Shown piece after piece: positions 1 through 61,930 of a stretch of DNA of 64,000 nucleotides. Every line of letters starts with the position of its first letter. The stretch's first letter is position 1. The notes under the pieces are model-generated. The model was not told the origin of the DNA, ran no database searches, and saw only the letters and a program-made list of their open reading frames with translations. The DNA is taken from positions 10,808 to 74,807 of the forward strand of contig DAIUEJ010000005.1 in the NCBI GenBank assembly GCA_036845225.1, in the 5' to 3' direction. This stretch comes from Candidatus Anoxymicrobiaceae bacterium. Its GTDB lineage: Bacteria; Actinomycetota; Geothermincolia; Fen-727; Anoxymicrobiaceae. Both the position numbers and the translations under genes were made by a program.

Positions 1-358
1 TCACCATGGACAACGTCGAGTCAGTCAAGGCCCGCATTGTGGCGGAGGCCGCCAATGCCCCCGTGACGCCTGAAGCGGAGAGAGAGTCCTTTTCGAGCGC
101 GGTACCTTCGTGATCCCTGACATCCTCTGCAACGCGGGAGGAGTCACCGTGAGCTACTTCGAATGGGTGCAGAACATCCAGTCGCTCCTGTGGAAGGAAG
201 AGGACGTCTACGAGCGCCTGTACGAGATAATGGTCACCGCTTTCTACCGGGTCCTCGAGATCGGCAAGCACCATGGCGTGAACCTGCGTCTTGCTTCGAT
301 GATCCTGGCAGTCGACCGGGTCTCAAAGGCGATCAAGGCTCGGGGCCTTTACCCCTGA
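1..358 (+). CDS. gdhA: Glu/Leu/Phe/Val (glutamate) dehydrogenase, C-terminal part; 5' end lies outside the window; apparent -1 frameshift near nt 84-90
   Basis: Frame 3 (nt 3-107) reads ...KARIVAEAANAPVTPEAERE, then runs out of frame. Frame 2 (110-358) reads IPDILCNAGGVTVSYFEWVQN..., the conserved GDH C-terminus. Inserting 1 nt after gagagag restores ERE[I/L]LFERGTFVIPDIL. Confidence 0.75.
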
Positions 359-378
359 CTAAACTTTTAGGGCGTTCG

Positions 379-477
379 ATGCACCACTGGGGTCAGGCAC
401 CGGTGGTGCATTTTTGATGTTTGACCAGGGAAACGTATTTAAATGCACCACCGGTGCCTGACCCCAGTGGTGCATCC
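379..477. repeat. REP-like element: two inverted copies of a 34-nt hairpin unit (9-bp stem atgcaccac/gtggtgcat, loop tggggtcaggcaccg) separated by a 31-nt spacer, between the convergent gdh and nadE 3' ends
   Basis: Direct reading: 379-412 gatgcaccactggggtcaggcaccggtggtgcat is the reverse complement of 444-477. The loop sequence matches the loops in the inverted repeats flanking the RAYT-like transposase at 21958-22870. Confidence 0.7.
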
Positions 478-486
478 CCGAAACGT

Positions 487-2220
487 TTAGCGGCGGCGGG
501 TTGAGATGGGCATCCGCCAGTCGCGGCCGAACGCCCGGGGAGTGATCTTGACCCCGACGGGAGCCTGCCGCCGCTTGTACTCGTTGGCGTCGACCGTCGC
601 TATCACCCGTGAGACGAGTTCGTGGCTCATGCCTCTAGCCACTATCTCCTGAGCGCCCAGCCCTTGTTCGACGTACGCCTCCAGCACGGGGTCGAGCTCC
701 TCATAGGGAGGCAGTGAGTCGGTGTCGAGCTGGTCCGCCCGGAGCTCGGCGGTAGGCGGCCGCTCGATTATGAACGCCGGGATGACTTCCTTGCCCGCGC
801 GCTCGTTGATGTACTCGGCAACCTCGTAGACCTGTGTCTTCAAGAGGTCCTTGATCAGAGCGAAGCCTCCTGCCATGTCCCCGTACAGAGTGCAGTAGCC
901 CATCGACAGCTCGCTCTTGTTGCCGGTGGCCAGCACCAGCCAGCCGAACTGGTTGGATAACGCCATCAGGAGGTTGCCCCTGATCCGTGCCTGGAGGTTC
1001 TCGTAGGCGACCCCTTCGTCTTTCTCGCCCAGCTCAGGCGCCAGGTCCTCCACATAGCTGGTGTAGACCGATCCTATCGGCAGCACTATCAACTTCACCC
1101 CGAGGTTTTGCACGAGCTCCTCCGCCGCGCTGCCGCTCTCCCCCGCCGTGTACTTGGAGGGGAGGAAAACACATACCACGTTCTCCTTACCCAGCGCCTC
1201 TACGGCGAGCGCCGCGGTCAGCGCCGAGTCGATCCCGCCGGAGAGCCCGAGCACGACCTTCTTGAACCCGTTCTTGGCGACGTATTCATCCAGGCCCAGC
1301 ACCAGCGCCTCGAATATCTCTTCGGTGAGCGACATCTCCGCGACCGGCTCCACGCGCCCTGAATCAGGCCTCGCGGCCTCGAAGGTGGACGGCTTTTCCA
1401 GGACGCAGACCTCAACCTCTGAGTGAGGGCACTCCGCCCGGCTGTAGCGGAACCGCGGCTCCAGGAGGCGATTGCTCTTGAGGGGCTCGAGGTCGACCTC
1501 GCACACCAGCAGCTCTTCTTCAAACCTCCGGGCCGTCGCGATGAACCCCTGTTGAGGATGATAGACACAGGACCCGCCGTCGAAGACCAGCTCGTCCTGG
1601 GCGCCGACCATGTTGCAGTAAGCGATCACGACCGGCCCGTCCATCGACCTCGATGCGATCAGTTTCCTGCGGTACTCGTATTTTCCGCGGTTGAACGGGG
1701 ACGCCGATAGGTTGAGGATGATCTCGGCGCCTCCGCGCGCCACCTGCTCTTCCACCGGCCCGCCGGGGAACCAGATATCCTCACAGATGGTTATTCCCAC
1801 GCGCACCCCGGAGACTTCGATCACCACGTTGCGGTTGCCGGCGCCGAAGTACCTCTTCTCATCGAAGACGCCGTAGTTAGGGAGAAAAGTCTTCCTGTAG
1901 ACGCAGCGCAACTTTCCCCGGTTGATAACGGCCGCCGAGTTGAAGACGTCGTAGTCCGCCTCGGCGTAGCCCACCACCGCGATGGTGTCACCGATGCCGC
2001 TCGCGAGCTCGTTCATCGCGGCCATGCTGCTGCGGTTGAAATCGGTCTTGAGGAGGAGGTCCTCGGGAGGATACCCGGTCAGGCAAAGCTCCGGGAAGAG
2101 CACTATGTCCGCGCCGGCGGCCTTTGCCTCCTCGACGTACTCCATTATCTTGCTCGAGTTGCCCTCGAGATCTCCGACCGCGCTCTTGACCTGAGCGAGC
2201 GCAAGAACCAGTCCTGGCAC
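487..2220 (-). CDS. nadE: Glutamine-dependent NAD+ synthetase (N-terminal CN-hydrolase/nitrilase domain plus C-terminal NAD synthase domain)
   Basis: 577 aa. N-terminus has the carbon-nitrogen hydrolase pattern (LFPELCLTGYPPEDLL) and the C-terminus the NAD synthetase P-loop region (VVLGLSGGIDSAL). Confidence 0.85.
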   Translation of the reverse strand: MPGLVLALAQVKSAVGDLEGNSSKIMEYVEEAKAAGADIVLFPELCLTGYPPEDLLLKTDFNRSSMAAMNELASGIGDTIAVVGYAEADYDVFNSAAVINRGKLRCVYRKTFLPNYGVFDEKRYFGAGNRNVVIEVSGVRVGITICEDIWFPGGPVEEQVARGGAEIILNLSASPFNRGKYEYRRKLIASRSMDGPVVIAYCNMVGAQDELVFDGGSCVYHPQQGFIATARRFEEELLVCEVDLEPLKSNRLLEPRFRYSRAECPHSEVEVCVLEKPSTFEAARPDSGRVEPVAEMSLTEEIFEALVLGLDEYVAKNGFKKVVLGLSGGIDSALTAALAVEALGKENVVCVFLPSKYTAGESGSAAEELVQNLGVKLIVLPIGSVYTSYVEDLAPELGEKDEGVAYENLQARIRGNLLMALSNQFGWLVLATGNKSELSMGYCTLYGDMAGGFALIKDLLKTQVYEVAEYINERAGKEVIPAFIIERPPTAELRADQLDTDSLPPYEELDPVLEAYVEQGLGAQEIVARGMSHELVSRVIATVDANEYKRRQAPVGVKITPRAFGRDWRMPISTRRR

Positions 2221-4292: not shown

Positions 4293-4306
4293 CCGAATGC
4301 GCCTCC

Positions 4307-4360
4307 GAGGTCAGGCCCCCGTGGTGCATTTTGACATCAGGCTCAGGACCGGTCAGGGAA
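4307..4360. repeat. Degenerate copy of the REP-like element (ggtcaggcccccgtggtgcattttga...gaccggtcagggaa)
   Basis: Aligns with 391-435 (ggtcaggcaccggtggtgcatttttga...gaccagggaa). Confidence 0.5.
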
Positions 4361-4423: not shown

Positions 4424-5242
4424 GTGCCTTCTCGAGTGCCGCCCCGTAGCCCGCGCCGACTGCTCCATGAACAGCCCCCTGCGAGCGCCCTCAGGGCGCG
4501 TGCTACGCGATGCGGGGTCAAGGGCTCCGGGGTCCGGCTCGCACTCGGCGCCCAGCAGTCTTCCCCAGTAATACGGGGTTGTGAGCTCTACTTCCGAGGG
4601 GATGCCGCCTTCGCCTCACCGGGCGTCTACGAATACCTGGAGCAGAACCACATCCTCTACGCCACCAGACTTCCCGCAAACCAGGTACTCTCCAGGGATA
4701 TAGAGCACCTCATGACCAGGCCGGTGGGAAGACCTCCCAAGAGACCAAGGGTTTTCTACCATGACTTCTCCTACCAGGCCACCTCCTGGAGCACGCCCAG
4801 GAGGGTGATTGCGAAGGTGGAGTGGCACGCAGGTGAGCTGTTCCCGAGGGTTGGCTTTATCGTGACCAACATGACCGCGAAAGCCAAGAACGTGGTGAGG
4901 TTCTACAACAAGCGCGGCAACTGCGAGCAGTGGATAAAGGAAGGGAAACGCACCCTTACCTGGACCAGGTTATCCTGCACCAGGTTCTCCTCCAACCAGG
5001 TGAGGCTCGCGCTGTTCGTCCTGGCGTACAACATGGGAAACTTCCTCCGCCGTTTCGCCCTTCCGAGTCAGGTCTCGCACTGGTCGCTATCCAGCATCCA
5101 GCTCAAGCTCATAAAGATTGGAGCAAAGGTGATGAGCCATTCGAGGAGGACGATCTTCCAGATGGCGGAGGTCGCCGTCCCTGAGGCGCTATTCGCCGCT
5201 CTCCTGGAGCGTATACGTTGCCTGGTCGCCGCGCCGACTTGA
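4424..5242 (+). pseudogene. IS1380-family DDE transposase, N-terminally truncated remnant (C-terminal ~215 aa only)
   Basis: Motifs RVIAKVEWHAGELFPRVGFIVTNM...FYNKRGNCEQWIKEGKRTLTWTRLSCTRFSSNQVRLALFVLAYNMGNFLRR match the IS1380-family C-terminus. The N-terminal ~60 residues of the ORF are non-homologous read-through, and no N-terminal transposase half is present. Confidence 0.7.
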
Positions 5243-9910: not shown

Positions 9911-10283
9911 AAAAGGTTAAGAGGACCTTGCCAAGAGCAACCTTCTTGGCGTACTCGCTCCGCTCCCTCTCGAGCTCGTCAGGCCCGAGGAGCGTCATGC
10001 ACCAGGCACCCTCGCGATCGGAGCCATCACAAGCAGCGTTGTCGCAACGATCGCGATCGCATAGTGTGCATTCTCACGTAACTGAACACTGATTCTCATC
10101 TTGCTTGAGCACTTCCGGAATTAGAGGATTCGAACCCTCTCCTGTCGTTTTACCCCGATCAATCACTTCGAGGCCAAGACCCTTGTTGCATTTCGATCTC
10201 ATGCTGAAAGAGCCCAGCGGTAAGGCATAACGCTGGACTAGATTGCGCATCCAGTCTTGAAAGTGAATATCGACTGGGGCTCC

Positions 10284-10334
10284 CCCCGGCCCCCCTGAGT
10301 CGAGGGTTCGAATCCCTCCAGCTCCACCACCAAA
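10284..10334 (+). repeat. Partial, inverted copy of the tRNA-Ala 3' half (acceptor/T-arm plus CCA plus 4 nt), forming a 39-bp perfect inverted repeat with the adjacent tRNA-Ala gene
   Basis: 10296-10334 gagtcgagggttcgaatccctccagctccaccaccaaat is the exact reverse complement of 10363-10400. The upstream ggggctcc mimics a tRNA 5' end, but no D-arm or anticodon arm is present. Confidence 0.55.
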
Positions 10335-10365
10335 TATGAAGGGTGGTCAGGAAGAGTGAAGGATT

Positions 10366-10443
10366 TGGTGGTGGAGCTGGAGGGATTCGAACCCTCGACT
10401 TCTACCCTGCCAAGGTAGCGCTCTCCCCCTGAGCTACAGCCCC
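10366..10443 (-). tRNA. tRNA-Ala (anticodon GGC), G3:U70 present, CCA encoded
   Basis: Minus strand reads GGGGCUGUAGCUCAGGGGGAGAGCGCUACCUUGGCAGGGUAGAAGUCGAGGGUUCGAAUCCCUCCAGCUCCACCA. Clean cloverleaf with anticodon loop UUGGCAG. Confidence 0.85.
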
Positions 10444-19805: not shown

Positions 19806-21968
19806 ATGAACTATCGCGGCCTACTTTCTCGCAGGGGCGGGCCCGGCCACGAACAGGGCTACCGTGCGAGGGGCGACATCAGCCACCTCTTGTTCGTGAC
19901 CGCGCGGCCCGGCATACAGCTCCTCTGGACCATCCTCGTGGTGGCCACCCTTGCCTATACGCTCATCAGCAGCGGCCCGAAGTATCCCGGCGTGGTGGTC
20001 CTCATGATGGCGACCTTCGCGCTGGTAATCCTCGGCAACCATTTCTTCCCGTTCGACGAATACCGGCCCGTGCTGTTCTTCTTCCTCATGGCCGCCTCTT
20101 TGGCCCTGACCTCGTCCATCGTGTTCCTGACCGGCAACCGGAACAGCCTGCTGGGCTTCCTCTTCTTCGCGGTACCGATCTTCGCATCCGCTTACTACGG
20201 CTATCCAGGCACGCTCCTGATGTCCCTCCTGACCGGGTTCGCCCGTTACATCCCGTTCATGACGGGTGGGGTCTCGGGACTGCAGCAGCTCGCGCTCGCC
20301 CTGTCCGCGGCGACCTACGTGTTCATCGGCATGATGTCCTGCTACGTGGTCGAGGGCGAGAAGATGTACGCGAGGGAGTCGAACGAGTACCGGCACCTGC
20401 TGGAGCTCTCGCGTCACAAGGAGCGCGATGTATCGCGCATCTACAACCTGAGCAGGCGGTTCTCGTATACGCTCGACCTCGACACGATCCTGAAGACGAC
20501 GGCCGCCCTCGCCCGGCAGATGCTCGCCTCCGAAAGCGCGCTGGTGTTCCTCATGGAGGGTGGCAGGCCTGTCCTCAAGGCCGCGCTCGGGCTCCTGCCG
20601 TTCACTGACATGGCCTCCGTTTCGGTCCCCGTTGAGAGCGCCTGGTTCCAGCGGCTGGCCGCCGGCGACGCTGTCATCGAGGAGAAGGCCACCCTCGGCT
20701 GGCTGCCTCTCACCCCCGAATCCGCGGGCAAGAAGCACAACATCGCCGCGGTCCCGCTTTTCACGGGCGGGGACGTGACCGGCTACCTCCTATGCCTCTC
20801 GCCGGCCGCGAGGTCTTTCAGGGAGTCAAACCTGGAGATCCTTTCGACGATCGCGAGCCAGGCTGCGGTGGCGGTCGAGAAAGCACAGCTCTACGCCGAG
20901 ACCCTCGATGACAAGACCAAGGTCGAGACTATCCTGAGCGCCTTGCGGGACGGCCTCCTGCTGACCGACACCCGGGGCAGGCTGGTCGAGGCCAACCCGG
21001 TCGCGGCGAGGATGCTAGGACTCGAGACGGATCCTGACGGCACCCGCCTGCAGGAGGTGCTCGCCACGGTCGTCGAGGATTGCGACCTCGGCCACCTCAC
21101 CCTGAACGAGGCGGTCGAGGCCGCGCTGGATGGGCGCACCGTCTTCGGTGAGATGGTCCTCTCGGGCGAGACCCACATGACCGTGCAGGCCCACTTCATC
21201 CCGCTCCGCGACCAGCTCTCCAACGTCTCGGGCGTTGTACTGGTCCTGCATGACATCACCGAGCTCAAAAGGGTCGACGAGATGAAGTCCAATTTCGTCA
21301 CCAACGTCTCGCACGAGCTGCGCACGACTCTCACCAGCATCTCGGGTTTCGTGAGCCTGCTTCTCGCCGGACGTGCGGGGGCGCTGTCTGCCAACCAGGA
21401 GAAGTACCTCGACGTGGTGAAGCAGCAGGCTTCGAACCTCACCAGGATGATCGAGGACCTCCTTGACCTCTCCAGGCTGCAGGCGAGCCGCAGCAGGGCA
21501 GGCGCGCAGCGCTCCGAGCTCGTCGACCTCGCCGAACTAGCGGCCAGGCAGTTGGCCGAAGCGGCGAACGACGGCTCGATCGATGTCCGGCTCAACATCA
21601 GCGAAGACCTCCCGCCGGTGGACGCCGACCCGGCCCGCCTTTCGCAGGTCCTCATCAACATCATGGAGAACGCGATCAAGTTCACCCCGCCTGGCGGGCT
21701 GGTGGAAGTGGGGGCCATGCTCAACGGTTCATTCGTCCAGGTGAAGGTGTCTGACACCGGCGCGGGCATCTCGCATTCGGCGCTGCCCCACATCTTTGAC
21801 AGGTTCTTCCAGGCGCACGGCGGCGACTCCGCGGACCAGGGGGGCTTCGGGCTGGGGCTCGCGATATCGCGTGAGATCATCGAGCTTCACGGCGGCAGGA
21901 TCTGGTGCGAGAGCGACCCGGGGCGTGGCTCGACTTTCTACTTCACAGTCCCCATCTATGCAAAATAG
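19806..21968 (+). CDS. Sensor histidine kinase: multi-TM N-terminal domain, GAF, PAS, HisKA, HATPase_c
   Basis: 720 aa; H-box DEMKSNFVTNVSHELRTTL and ATPase N/G boxes (NIMENAIKFT; DTGAGIS; GGFGLGLAISREI). Confidence 0.85.
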   Translation: MNYRGLLSRRGGPGHEQGYRARGDISHLLFVTARPGIQLLWTILVVATLAYTLISSGPKYPGVVVLMMATFALVILGNHFFPFDEYRPVLFFFLMAASLALTSSIVFLTGNRNSLLGFLFFAVPIFASAYYGYPGTLLMSLLTGFARYIPFMTGGVSGLQQLALALSAATYVFIGMMSCYVVEGEKMYARESNEYRHLLELSRHKERDVSRIYNLSRRFSYTLDLDTILKTTAALARQMLASESALVFLMEGGRPVLKAALGLLPFTDMASVSVPVESAWFQRLAAGDAVIEEKATLGWLPLTPESAGKKHNIAAVPLFTGGDVTGYLLCLSPAARSFRESNLEILSTIASQAAVAVEKAQLYAETLDDKTKVETILSALRDGLLLTDTRGRLVEANPVAARMLGLETDPDGTRLQEVLATVVEDCDLGHLTLNEAVEAALDGRTVFGEMVLSGETHMTVQAHFIPLRDQLSNVSGVVLVLHDITELKRVDEMKSNFVTNVSHELRTTLTSISGFVSLLLAGRAGALSANQEKYLDVVKQQASNLTRMIEDLLDLSRLQASRSRAGAQRSELVDLAELAARQLAEAANDGSIDVRLNISEDLPPVDADPARLSQVLINIMENAIKFTPPGGLVEVGAMLNGSFVQVKVSDTGAGISHSALPHIFDRFFQAHGGDSADQGGFGLGLAISREIIELHGGRIWCESDPGRGSTFYFTVPIYAK

Positions 21969-22870
21969 GGACAGGCACCGTTTTGCATCAGCAACATATT
22001 TCTTGCACCCTACTTGATATGCTTGTACTGCTAGGGCATAATATTGTTCAAATGCGCCAGCCACGACTGCAAGCCTCGGACGCCCTGCATCATGTCTTCA
22101 CACGAGGCAACAATAAGCAAACCATCTTCCGTGAGGCAGGTGACAAGGTGTACTTCTTGAACCTCCTGTCCTCAGTTATCTCAAGATACGCTTGGATTTG
22201 TCACTCATACTGCCTCATGGACAACCATTATCACCTTCTCCTTGAGACACCGAGTGGCTTCCTTTCTGAAGGAATGCACGTCATCAACGGCGCCTACACC
22301 ACAAAGTTCAACAGCAAGTACGGGTGTTCAGGGCATGTACTGCAAGGGCGCTATCACTCGCCGCTGGTGGAGCAGGAATCTCACTTCCTTGAACTACTGA
22401 GATACATCGCCTTGAACCCTGTGAAGGATGGATTTGTCCTGCATCCAGAAGACTGGCGATGGAGCTGTTATAGAGCGCTTGCCGGGATAGAACCTTTACC
22501 TGCCTTCCTTTCCACCCAGCGTGCCCACGGGGTTTTCGACCAGGACACAACCAACGCCAGACGACTTTATTCCGATTTTGTCCTTGAGCGGCTTCCGGAA
22601 GCACTGGAGCGGGCAAGGGGAAGGCCTTCACTCTCGATGATCTTCGAGTGCTGCCAAGACACTGACCGGAGTGCAGCTGCCATCGTTACAGCTTATGCCA
22701 AACACCGATACAGCATGACCGAGATTGCCCGGTACCTCAGAATCAGTTGCGCAACAGTCAGCAGGGTCATTTCAAAAGCGGATCAAGCAGACCTTGATTG
22801 GGAATTCAGGATTTAGGAGATCCCGCTTCATGTTAACAATGCAAAATGGTGCCTGTCCCTATTTTGCAGG
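21958..22870 (+). mobile_element. ~0.9 kb low-GC insertion carrying a RAYT/IS200-like Y1 transposase gene bounded by ~36-39 bp imperfect inverted repeats, each containing a hairpin (tgcaaaa-[tagggacaggcaccg]-ttttgca)
   Basis: Left 21960-21996 gcaaaatagggacaggcaccgttttgcatcagcaaca; right 22830-22868 atgttaacaatgcaaaatggtgcctgtccctattttgca (reverse complement). The inverted repeats abut the stop codons of the two convergent host genes (histidine kinase and HD-GYP). AT content is higher than in flanking DNA. Confidence 0.7.
22052..22816 (+). CDS. REP-associated/IS200-like Y1 (HUH) tyrosine transposase with C-terminal DnaA-C-like HTH
   Basis: ALHHVFTRGNNKQTIF...YCLMDNHYHLLLE (HuH motif)...RYIALNPVKDGFV (Tyr region)...MTEIARYLRISCATVSRVISK (HTH). 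The ATG at 22052 is chosen; the ORF upstream of it is junk. Confidence 0.7.
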   Translation: MRQPRLQASDALHHVFTRGNNKQTIFREAGDKVYFLNLLSSVISRYAWICHSYCLMDNHYHLLLETPSGFLSEGMHVINGAYTTKFNSKYGCSGHVLQGRYHSPLVEQESHFLELLRYIALNPVKDGFVLHPEDWRWSCYRALAGIEPLPAFLSTQRAHGVFDQDTTNARRLYSDFVLERLPEALERARGRPSLSMIFECCQDTDRSAAAIVTAYAKHRYSMTEIARYLRISCATVSRVISKADQADLDWEFRI

Positions 22871-28689: not shown

Positions 28690-28810
28690 CAAGATCTTCT
28701 CCCATCCGGACTGTTACCGTCGGCCCCGGAATTTCGCCGGGTCAGCTCTTTCGAGCTCGCGGGCTTTACCGCCGGTCGGGGATTTCACCCTGTCCCGAAG
28801 ACTATATATT
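28690..28810 (-). promoter_or_regulatory. FMN riboswitch (RFN element) in the rib operon leader
   Basis: Minus strand reads CUUCGGGACAGGGUGAAAUCCCCGACCGGCGGUAAAGCCCGCGAGC...GGCGAAAUUCCGGGGCCGACGGUAACAGUCCGGAUGGGAGAAG, matching the conserved RFN cores (GGGUGAAAUUCCC, GACCGGCGGUA, AGUCCGGAUGGGAGA). Confidence 0.85.
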
Positions 28811-36398: not shown

Positions 36399-36414
36399 AT
36401 GCCTGCCCGACTTG

Positions 36415-36438
36415 AGAAAAAGGACCTGACCCCGAAAA
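36415..36438. repeat. REP-like unit (gaaaaaggacctgaccccgaaaag) between the hdrBC-like start and glnA terminator
   Basis: Inverted 18/18 match to 61798-61815. Confidence 0.5.
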
Positions 36439-36446
36439 GTTGAGTC

Positions 36447-61770: not shown

Positions 61771-61794
61771 GTCGGCCTCCTTGACTTAACACTA

Positions 61795-61856
61795 GGGGTC
61801 AGGTCCTTTTTCTTAAGTCCCGGGACTAAACTTTTTGGGGTCAGGCCCCTTTTTGT
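61795..61856. repeat. Cluster of REP-like units upstream of the GRE gene: ggggtcaggtcc-ttttt / palindrome agtcccgggact / ggggtcaggcccc-ttttt
   Basis: Shares an 18-nt identity (gaaaaaggacctgacccc, inverted) with 36415-36438 and the GGGGTCAGG core with the elements at 379-477 and 4307-4360. Confidence 0.55.
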
Positions 61857-61930
61857 TTAGTCGCAGGGATAATCATAGTACGGTTGGGCGCGAGGTGATA
61901 ATGACGGATGACGTATTCCCGTCGAGCGCC

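Follow-up and report, generated by a model that had tools for sequence, protein, structure and literature searches.

Classical REPs occur as more than 100 dispersed, mostly extragenic copies per genome, and nearly all that is known of REP/RAYT biology comes from Proteobacteria with GTAG-tagged REPs. The locus described here is an inverted pair of hairpin units, which we call REP-A, in a 64,000-nt stretch of DNA (the window) from a Candidatus Anoxymicrobiaceae bacterium. It resembles the REPIN-RAYT systems of Pseudomonas and Enterobacteria (PMC3116915, PMC2817692) in its short, imperfect, dispersed extragenic palindromes, in inverted pairs of ~100 nt able to fold into one long hairpin, in a single-copy RAYT gene that has these units, inverted, on either side, in the presence of more than one REP family, each with its own RAYT, in related genomes, and in presence/absence polymorphism between close relatives. 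It differs from them in that the 5′ GT[AG]G tag is absent and the loop is conserved while the stem varies (PMC2817692, PMC3116915). In addition, spacers are almost unrelated between copies, a genome may carry far fewer copies than the hundreds found in Pseudomonas, and the transposase has an extra HTH domain and scores below the NCBI RayT cutoff.

Di Nocera et al. (2013) reported RAYT-like genes flanked by inverted repeats sharing GGGGWSAS ("TIRtrons" or "TIRYT"), and some TIRtron repeats are moderately abundant families that occur as singles and dimers (PMC3733652). Quentin et al. (2018) equate TIRYT with subclass 2.1 of TnpA-Y1, which has a C-terminal HTH, and report that no REP-like sequences were found beside subclass 2.1 genes (PMC6006769). 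Our system shares with TIRtrons a Y1/HUH transposase longer than classical RAYTs and with a C-terminal HTH, a gene flanked by GGGGWSAS inverted repeats, the occurrence of singles and dimers, and the lack of a GTAG tag. In contrast to TIRtrons, the motif here sits in the loop of a covarying 9- to 12-bp hairpin rather than just being part of a terminal inverted repeat, the spacer of doublets is fixed at ~31 nt, and the host is an uncultured Geothermincolia/Anoxymicrobiaceae actinobacterium. GGGGTCAG in REP-A fits GGGGWSAS, and GGGGACAG or GGGACAG is found in the sister family REP-B and around homologues of its transposase. Going by motif and HTH, we file REP-A as a putative member of the GGGGWSAS TIRtron/TIRYT class. 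A search of the literature with the motif strings returned only unrelated primer or miRNA matches.

Two other systems were compared. The BIMEs of Escherichia coli likewise consist of intergenic REP units in alternating orientation, often after convergent genes, but they combine distinct Y and Z REP types in arrays, have defined linker motifs, and bind IHF or gyrase. Nothing beyond single pairs of identical units was seen here, and none of ~190 sites held an array. An initial annotation of the locus as a "2xREP (BIME-like)" arrangement is supported as regards the REP pair, while "BIME-like" is imprecise for a single tail-to-tail, REPIN-like pair with no alternating array. IS200/IS605 elements such as IS608 have Y1/HUH chemistry, subterminal single-strand hairpins, and no target-site duplication in common with our system. 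In REP-A, however, the two ends are identical inverted units rather than distinct left and right ends, the transposase gene occupies one fixed locus per genome, and no conserved target tetranucleotide was found beside the doublets.

The doublet between gdh and nadE

A repeat search of the window recovered a perfect inverted repeat with 36-nt arms at 378 to 413 and 441 to 476 (100% complementary, 27 nt apart), for which the chance expectation in 64 kb is ~1e-15. The repeat is formed by two copies of the 33-nt REP-A hairpin unit in the convergent gdh/nadE spacer. The 33-mer ATGCACCACTGGGGTCAGGCACCGGTGGTGCAT was found at 379 to 411 (+) and 443 to 475 (-); a scan of the 64-kb window allowing up to 3 mismatches yielded no further copy, and 100 shuffles gave 0 matches. 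The features at and near the doublet are as follows.

2 to 358, plus strand: 3′ end of gdh (ELFV_dehydrog), stop codon at 356 to 358
357 to 372, plus strand: left foot of a disrupted E-type hairpin (see below), GACTAAACTTTTAGGG, overlapping the gdh stop codon at 356 to 358
373 to 378, no strand: CGTTCG beside unit 1, 6 nt, in the filled allele only
379 to 411, plus strand: REP-A unit 1, ATGCACCACT-GGGGTCAGGCACC-GGTGGTGCAT, with the G-rich loop motif on the plus strand, followed by TTTTT
412 to 442, no strand: spacer between the REP-A units, 31 nt (family length 30 to 32 nt, sequence almost unconserved)
443 to 475, minus strand: REP-A unit 2, same sequence as unit 1 but on the opposite strand (tail-to-tail, "+ -")
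476 to 490, plus strand: right foot of the disrupted E-type hairpin, CCCCGAAACGTTTAG, overlapping the nadE stop codon at 487 to 489, with GAAAC in place of TTTTT
487 to 2220, minus strand: nadE, glutamine-dependent NAD synthetase (CN_hydrolase + NAD_synthase), convergent with gdh, stop codon at 487 to 489
4297 to 4332, plus strand: decayed REP-A unit, 83% identical, stem largely broken, the sole further REP-A copy in the window

The initial annotation had placed an exact reverse complement of 379 to 412 at 444 to 477. The exact complementarity was confirmed, and the true partner is 442 to 475, a shift of 2 nt. Its location of the pair in a convergent gdh/nadE spacer is borne out by the flanking genes, and its description of each unit as a 9-bp stem-loop agrees with 9 uninterrupted Watson-Crick pairs, which a T.G pair and two G-C pairs extend to a 12-pair stem with a 9-nt loop. 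At 33 nt, the unit is a short imperfect palindrome able to form a stem-loop, within the 20 to 40 nt of REPs. The G-rich-loop strand is the more stable as single-stranded DNA (-13.3 kcal/mol, against -9.3 kcal/mol for the other strand), and the whole doublet region has a predicted folding energy of -97 kcal/mol (z = -13). Rfam contains no family for the doublet and returned just sub-threshold matches to generic long hairpins (miRNA precursors).

These folding properties bear on an alternative explanation, namely that the units are primarily a host-selected pair of intrinsic terminators or RNA 3′-end stabilizers for gdh and nadE, belonging to a family of terminators spread by selection or gene conversion and not by transposition. 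Each unit is a -24 to -25 kcal/mol hairpin as RNA, unit 1 is followed by TTTTTGATGTTTG and was flagged by a terminator scan, and the "+ -" order presents both convergent genes with a hairpin of the same sense. With Rho-independent terminators the units have in common a G+C-rich hairpin and then T-rich sequence directly after stop codons, but the T run after unit 2 is just TTT, and, unlike in such terminators, the loop is long (9 to 13 nt) and conserved across phyla, and identical copies of the sequence recur at many loci and on the flanks of transposase genes. Taking in the evidence given in the following sections, we regard this explanation as unlikely.

Several other features of the window were recorded. 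In gdh, a 2-nt GA insertion near 78 to 79 (in a GAGAGAG run, 75 to 90), relative to intact 412-aa orthologues on contigs L147 and L149, shifts the frame ~90 codons upstream of the stop; gdh is either a pseudogene in the window strain or affected by a sequencing error. The decayed REP-A unit lies ~90 nt upstream of a truncated IS1380-family (DDE) transposase gene (4424 to 5242), of which only the C-terminal half of the profile was matched. A perfect 38-nt inverted repeat at 10298 to 10400 has as its right arm the 3′ end of tRNA-Ala(GGC) (10369 to 10443, minus strand) and as its left arm an inverted copy of the 3′ half, which comprises the T-arm, acceptor, CCA, and 6 further nt. ARAGORN reports a permuted tmRNA there, and Rfam has no tmRNA above threshold. 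The gap of 27 nt is shared with the doublet; a common mechanism was considered and set aside as this is probably a coincidence, given that contig L038 (99.6% identical) has the same arms with a different, longer spacer. An FMN riboswitch (28690 to 28806, minus strand; Rfam, 110 bits) precedes the riboflavin operon.

REP-A copies beyond the window

Copies outside the window were sought with a pattern in which the feet and loop were fixed and the inner stem was free. In GTDB, scanned with one genome per species, the window's own genome was not recovered, and 14 matches with the REP-A hairpin design were found, 1 to 2 per genome, in Actinomycetota, Acidobacteriota, Desulfobacterota, Deferrimicrobium, and Clostridia. 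Two of the 14, in one Candidatus Anoxymicrobiaceae MAG, were nearly identical to the window unit, and no RAYT gene adjoined any of them. With 1 to 2 matches per GTDB genome, the per-genome copy number may be low, or MAGs may lose REP regions.

A scan of JGI metagenomes recovered at least 117 loci. Among those listed, the exact 33-mer occurred at least 25 times and close variants ~30 times more; after grouping by flanking sequence, the JGI matches listed represented at least ~34 distinct contexts for REP-A and at least 94 for REP-A and REP-B together. The REP-A carrier contigs came from peat metagenomes and belong to Geothermincolia/Anoxymicrobiaceae (Actinomycetota); they may derive from several related Anoxymicrobiaceae and not necessarily from one genome.

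This distribution bears on a reading in which the palindrome is an operator for a nitrogen-metabolism regulator. Gdh, nadE, and the neighboring glnB and amt make the surroundings of the doublet a nitrogen assimilation neighborhood, as that reading would have it. The same sequence, however, adjoins dozens of unrelated genes and is missing in strains and relatives that have this gene cluster, and the site is at the 3′ ends of both genes. A nitrogen operator is very improbable and is effectively refuted by the distribution.

At least ~30 distinct doublets were found, and all have the "+ -" arrangement, with the G-rich loop of the left unit on the top strand and that of the right unit on the bottom strand. 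Their spacers measure 30 to 32 nt, apart from one of 34 nt, a characteristic spacing, as in REPINs. Singlets are common among the REP sites listed. Units lack a GTAG or GTGG tag (GT[AG]G) at the hairpin foot and are preceded by A-rich or variable sequence. Two family-wide features favor termination: the consensus flanks AAA...TTT make a unit terminator-like on both strands, and many REP-A copies start within ~10 nt of a stop codon. Against it, doublets were assigned to tandem and divergent as well as convergent spacers, albeit by a crude GC3/ORF heuristic. By the same crude test, the initial annotation's account of convergent spacers as the REP habitat fits this copy but not the family as a whole.

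While spacer length is fixed, spacer sequence is barely conserved: the mean pair score between doublets is -3.2, compared to -4.6 ± 0.3 for shuffled spacers, although a few pairs are clearly related. No donor copy with the spacer of the window doublet was found among the matches listed. Together with the identity of the units and the frequency of singlets, these spacers might suggest that units, and not doublets, move or are homogenized, the second unit being placed ~31 nt away (for example, by a dimeric transposase) or the spacers drifting under gene conversion of the units. The faint homology that spacers keep, and the few clearly related pairs, count against such independent movement, which we consider quite unlikely in view of the allelic comparisons presented below.

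Stems vary, but the loop motif GGG(G)WCAGGCACC is kept across phyla; termination does not require a 13-nt loop to be conserved as stems change. Five stem pairs were not fixed by the search pattern; over 81 distinct units, these were paired in 68.9% of cases, compared to 49.9% in shuffles (0/500 reached the observed value). The covariation score of the same 81 units was 0.447, compared to 0.200 in shuffles, with all slid registers scoring lower, a signal that comes mostly from a few families and reflects conservation of the hairpin between families, not many independent events. The hairpin is maintained by compensatory changes. One and the same position, immediately behind the stop codons of orthologous genes, holds a REP-A-like doublet in one lineage (L098, 2779 to 2871) and a REP-B doublet in another (L051, 4689 to 4784).

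RAYT genes flanked by REP units

The window contains one RAYT gene, RAYT-B, whose flanks are inverted 31-nt hairpins of the REP-B family.

21958 to 21988, plus strand: REP-B unit at the left flank of RAYT-B, ATGCAAAATA-GGGACAGGCACC-GTTTTGCAT
22052 to 22816, plus strand: RAYT-B, 254-aa Y1/HUH transposase with an HTH at the C terminus; GC content 52%, against 62% for the genome
22839 to 22869, minus strand: REP-B unit at the right flank of RAYT-B, reverse complement CTGCAAAATAGGGACAGGCACCATTTTGCAT

The left REP-B hairpin supplies the last codons and the stop of a histidine-kinase gene (YAK* instead of YA*). REP-A and REP-B have in common the feet ATGCA/TGCAT and the loop GGGNCAGGCACC, and the middle of the stem differs between the two families by compensatory changes, CCAC/GTGG versus AAAT/ATTT. 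Searching the fetched loci by tblastn with RAYT-B uncovered a second gene, RAYT-A, encoding a 251-aa protein 44% identical to RAYT-B. It is flanked by an exact REP-A unit on the left (+) and a 1-nt variant on the right (-), in the same "+ ... -" geometry as the doublet. RAYT-A was found on metagenome contigs L039 and L156 to L160, at one conserved locus between convergent genes in 5 samples, and each RAYT keeps its gene context from sample to sample, as a single-locus, domesticated transposase gene. RAYT-B homologues 65 to 72% identical to it are flanked by hairpins with the same loop and other stems, for example, AACGCAAATTA-GGGACAGGCACC-TTTTTGCGTT.

REP-A is dispersed, structured, and tied to the flanks of Y1 transposase genes. 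The initial annotation had named two outcomes that would speak against a REP/RAYT origin, a palindrome unique in the genome and one unrelated to the RAYT inverted repeats on proper alignment. Neither was observed, which supports the REP/RAYT reading: at least ~34 distinct REP-A contexts exist in metagenome contigs, the doublet units align with the hairpins flanking RAYT-B (shared ATGCA...TGCAT feet and GGGNCAGGCACC loop, compensatory stem changes), and the exact REP-A unit also flanks a second RAYT gene. The link that had been drawn to the RAYT of the window needs one amendment: its hairpins are related, but they belong to the sister family REP-B and not to REP-A. The presence of the same units around transposase genes also argues against termination as the origin of the doublet.

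The HUH (NHYHLL) and catalytic Tyr (RYIALNPV) motifs are intact in the RAYT proteins. Pfam Y1_Tnp matches the RAYT genes above threshold, and NCBIfam REP_Tyr_transpos gives 68 and 63 bits, below its cutoff of 80 (RAYT-B scores 68). A PDB search with a single RAYT sequence found nothing and a profile was needed; the profile of RAYT proteins matches E. coli TnpAREP (PDB 4ER8, E = 1e-5). For the C-terminal HTH, there were sub-threshold matches to HTH_38/HTH_23 at residues ~209 to 242, a conserved I-A-R-Y-L segment, and a match of the C-terminal segment profile to the DeoR-type HTH (E = 0.013). An exact-sequence lookup of RAYT-B returned no record, and homologues were used instead. RAYT genes no more than 44 to 72% identical share a conserved promoter-like stretch, TTGAT.TGCTTGTACTGCT.GG.ATA.T, which follows the left hairpin and precedes the start codon (window, ~22000 to 22050; L002, ~9950 to 10000; L039, ~1075 to 1110, minus strand).

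Filled and empty sites and the loop motif

Eleven contigs encode a nadE protein 100% identical to that of the window; 6 of them carry the doublet and 4 an "empty" site, in strains ~3% diverged on the gdh side. Perfect long palindromes can be library or assembly artefacts, and two contigs (L059 and L154) break inside the repeat, as a fold-back chimera might lead one to expect. The sequence of the doublet is nevertheless identical in six independent metagenome assemblies (L147 to L149 and L153 to L155), and the same architecture exists at ≥ ~30 other loci; taken together, these effectively refute an artefact, which is extremely improbable.

The empty allele (L146/L151/L152) reads GACTAAACTTTTAGGGGTCAGGCCCCTTTTTGTTTAG and contains neither unit nor the spacer sequence. 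It is an intact 40-nt hairpin, GACTAAAC TTTTA GGGGTCAGGCCCC TTTTT GTTTAG, of a further family that we call E-type. In the filled allele, the doublet sits in the loop of this hairpin, both feet of which are kept (357 to 372 and 476 to 490); where the empty allele has the apical GTCAGG, the filled one has CGTTCG and the 97-nt doublet, and GAAAC stands in place of TTTTT. The target-site duplication that a MITE of a DDE transposon would leave was not found at the filled/empty junctions. On one of the contigs with the empty allele (L146, 4823 to 14791), gdh is cut to 154 aa, and the island behind it encodes a DnaB-like helicase, an HTH protein, a tyrosine integrase, and a DNA methyltransferase.

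Because the empty allele has neither, the units and spacer appear to have arrived together at gdh-nadE, which counts against independent movement of units. In relatives whose nadE is 88% and 80% identical, gdh and nadE are just 4 and 2 nt apart, and a relative with 82% identical nadE has an unrelated 109-nt spacer. Since relatives have 2- to 4-nt spacers and the empty allele an E-type hairpin, the simplest order of events would be no element, then an E-type hairpin, and then a doublet nested in its loop. Neither comparison favors selection for termination: the empty allele already has a hairpin of its own, and relatives with a spacer of 2 to 4 nt need none.

Other sites vary as well. In a species with ~80% DNA identity, the entire RAYT-B cassette is missing from between the same two genes (21958 to 22869 in the window versus 2984 to 3105 in L072), and a REP pair is present where the window has none. 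The gdh-nadE doublet itself is present or absent among close relatives. At another locus, a singlet in some samples corresponds to a doublet in others with identical flanks. Such singlet/doublet polymorphism might be taken as movement of single units, but the difference is exactly one unit and spacer between 12-nt direct repeats, as expected from deletion.

In our judgment, the gdh-nadE doublet is likely a REPIN-like pair, a miniature, lacking the transposase, of the cassette in which a single-locus Y1/HUH tyrosine transposase gene of the RAYT/TIRYT type, with a C-terminal HTH, lies between the same two units. The units would fold as single-stranded DNA hairpins recognized via the conserved G-rich loop, and the cognate transposase would recognize and cut the hairpins and move or copy the pair in trans. 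Each convergent transcript would read a same-sense hairpin and then T-rich sequence, and the doublet would probably serve also to terminate transcription or to shield the 3′ ends of gdh and nadE, as a side effect rather than as the reason for its existence. Several observations fit a REPIN-like pair less well. The nearly unrelated spacers of different doublets speak against simple recent copying of the pair, the 6 extra nt (CGTTCG) and the 5-nt substitution (TTTTT to GAAAC) between alleles speak against a clean insertion, and the window holds only the doublet and one relic of REP-A. To these are added the ~3% divergence between the strains with the two alleles, the 1 to 2 matches per GTDB genome, the lack of a donor spacer among the matches listed, the missing GT[AG]G tag, and the sub-cutoff NCBIfam scores.

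E-type hairpins have the same GGGGTCAG core as the REP units. The family form is CTAAAC T5 GGGGTCAG(G/A)CCC T5 GTTTAG, and it was found in >15 distinct contexts (e.g., L035, L055, L074, and L123). The window contains three further copies.

36409 to 36446, minus strand: E-type hairpin
61783 to 61819, plus strand: E-type hairpin, GACTTAAC..GGGGTCAGGTCC..TTAAGTC
61824 to 61862, plus strand: E-type hairpin, GACTAAAC TTTTT GGGGTCAGGCCCC TTTTT GTTTAGTC, almost identical to the empty allele

That E-type hairpins are excision scars of doublets was rejected, as the feet CTAAAC/GTTTAG do not match the REP-A stems. A MITE-like element of ~87 nt (L047, 263 to 349; also in L062, L070, L075, and L089) has terminal inverted repeats that begin exactly with GGGGTCAGGCACCGTCCACTTTTTTGTCCAC; flanks diverge directly outside GGGG, which places the motif at the terminus and not in a hairpin loop.

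A more speculative possibility, which we put forward tentatively and think rather doubtful, is that the loop GGGGWCAGGCACC serves HTH-bearing Y1 transposases both as the motif for recognition and cleavage and as the preferred target, with insertion into hairpin loops that display the motif. Targeting of this kind would explain why the doublet lies in the GGGGTCAGG loop of another repeat family, and it would explain the co-occurrence of at least four families with the same motif (REP-A, REP-B, E-type, and the TIR-type MITE). As a general target, E-type loops are represented by one case, the gdh-nadE site being the only one at which a doublet was found inside an outer hairpin. If true, this possibility would provide a first sequence-level handle on substrate and target choice in a large uncharacterized transposase subclass.

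The element is an ordinary mobile repeat of a kind already known, not a gene-specific regulatory element. What is particular to it is the placement of the motif in a hairpin loop, the fixed geometry of the doublet, and the actinobacterial host. Published surveys associate RAYT-like proteins with a C-terminal HTH with simple inverted repeats or with no repeats at all. In this uncultured actinobacterial lineage, the HTH-bearing class is accompanied by hairpin repeats whose loop motif is conserved across phyla, and these repeats form REPIN-like doublets of fixed geometry that are polymorphic among closely related strains. The locus supplies substrates for biochemistry, including the top-strand hairpin, loop mutants, and filled and empty sites.
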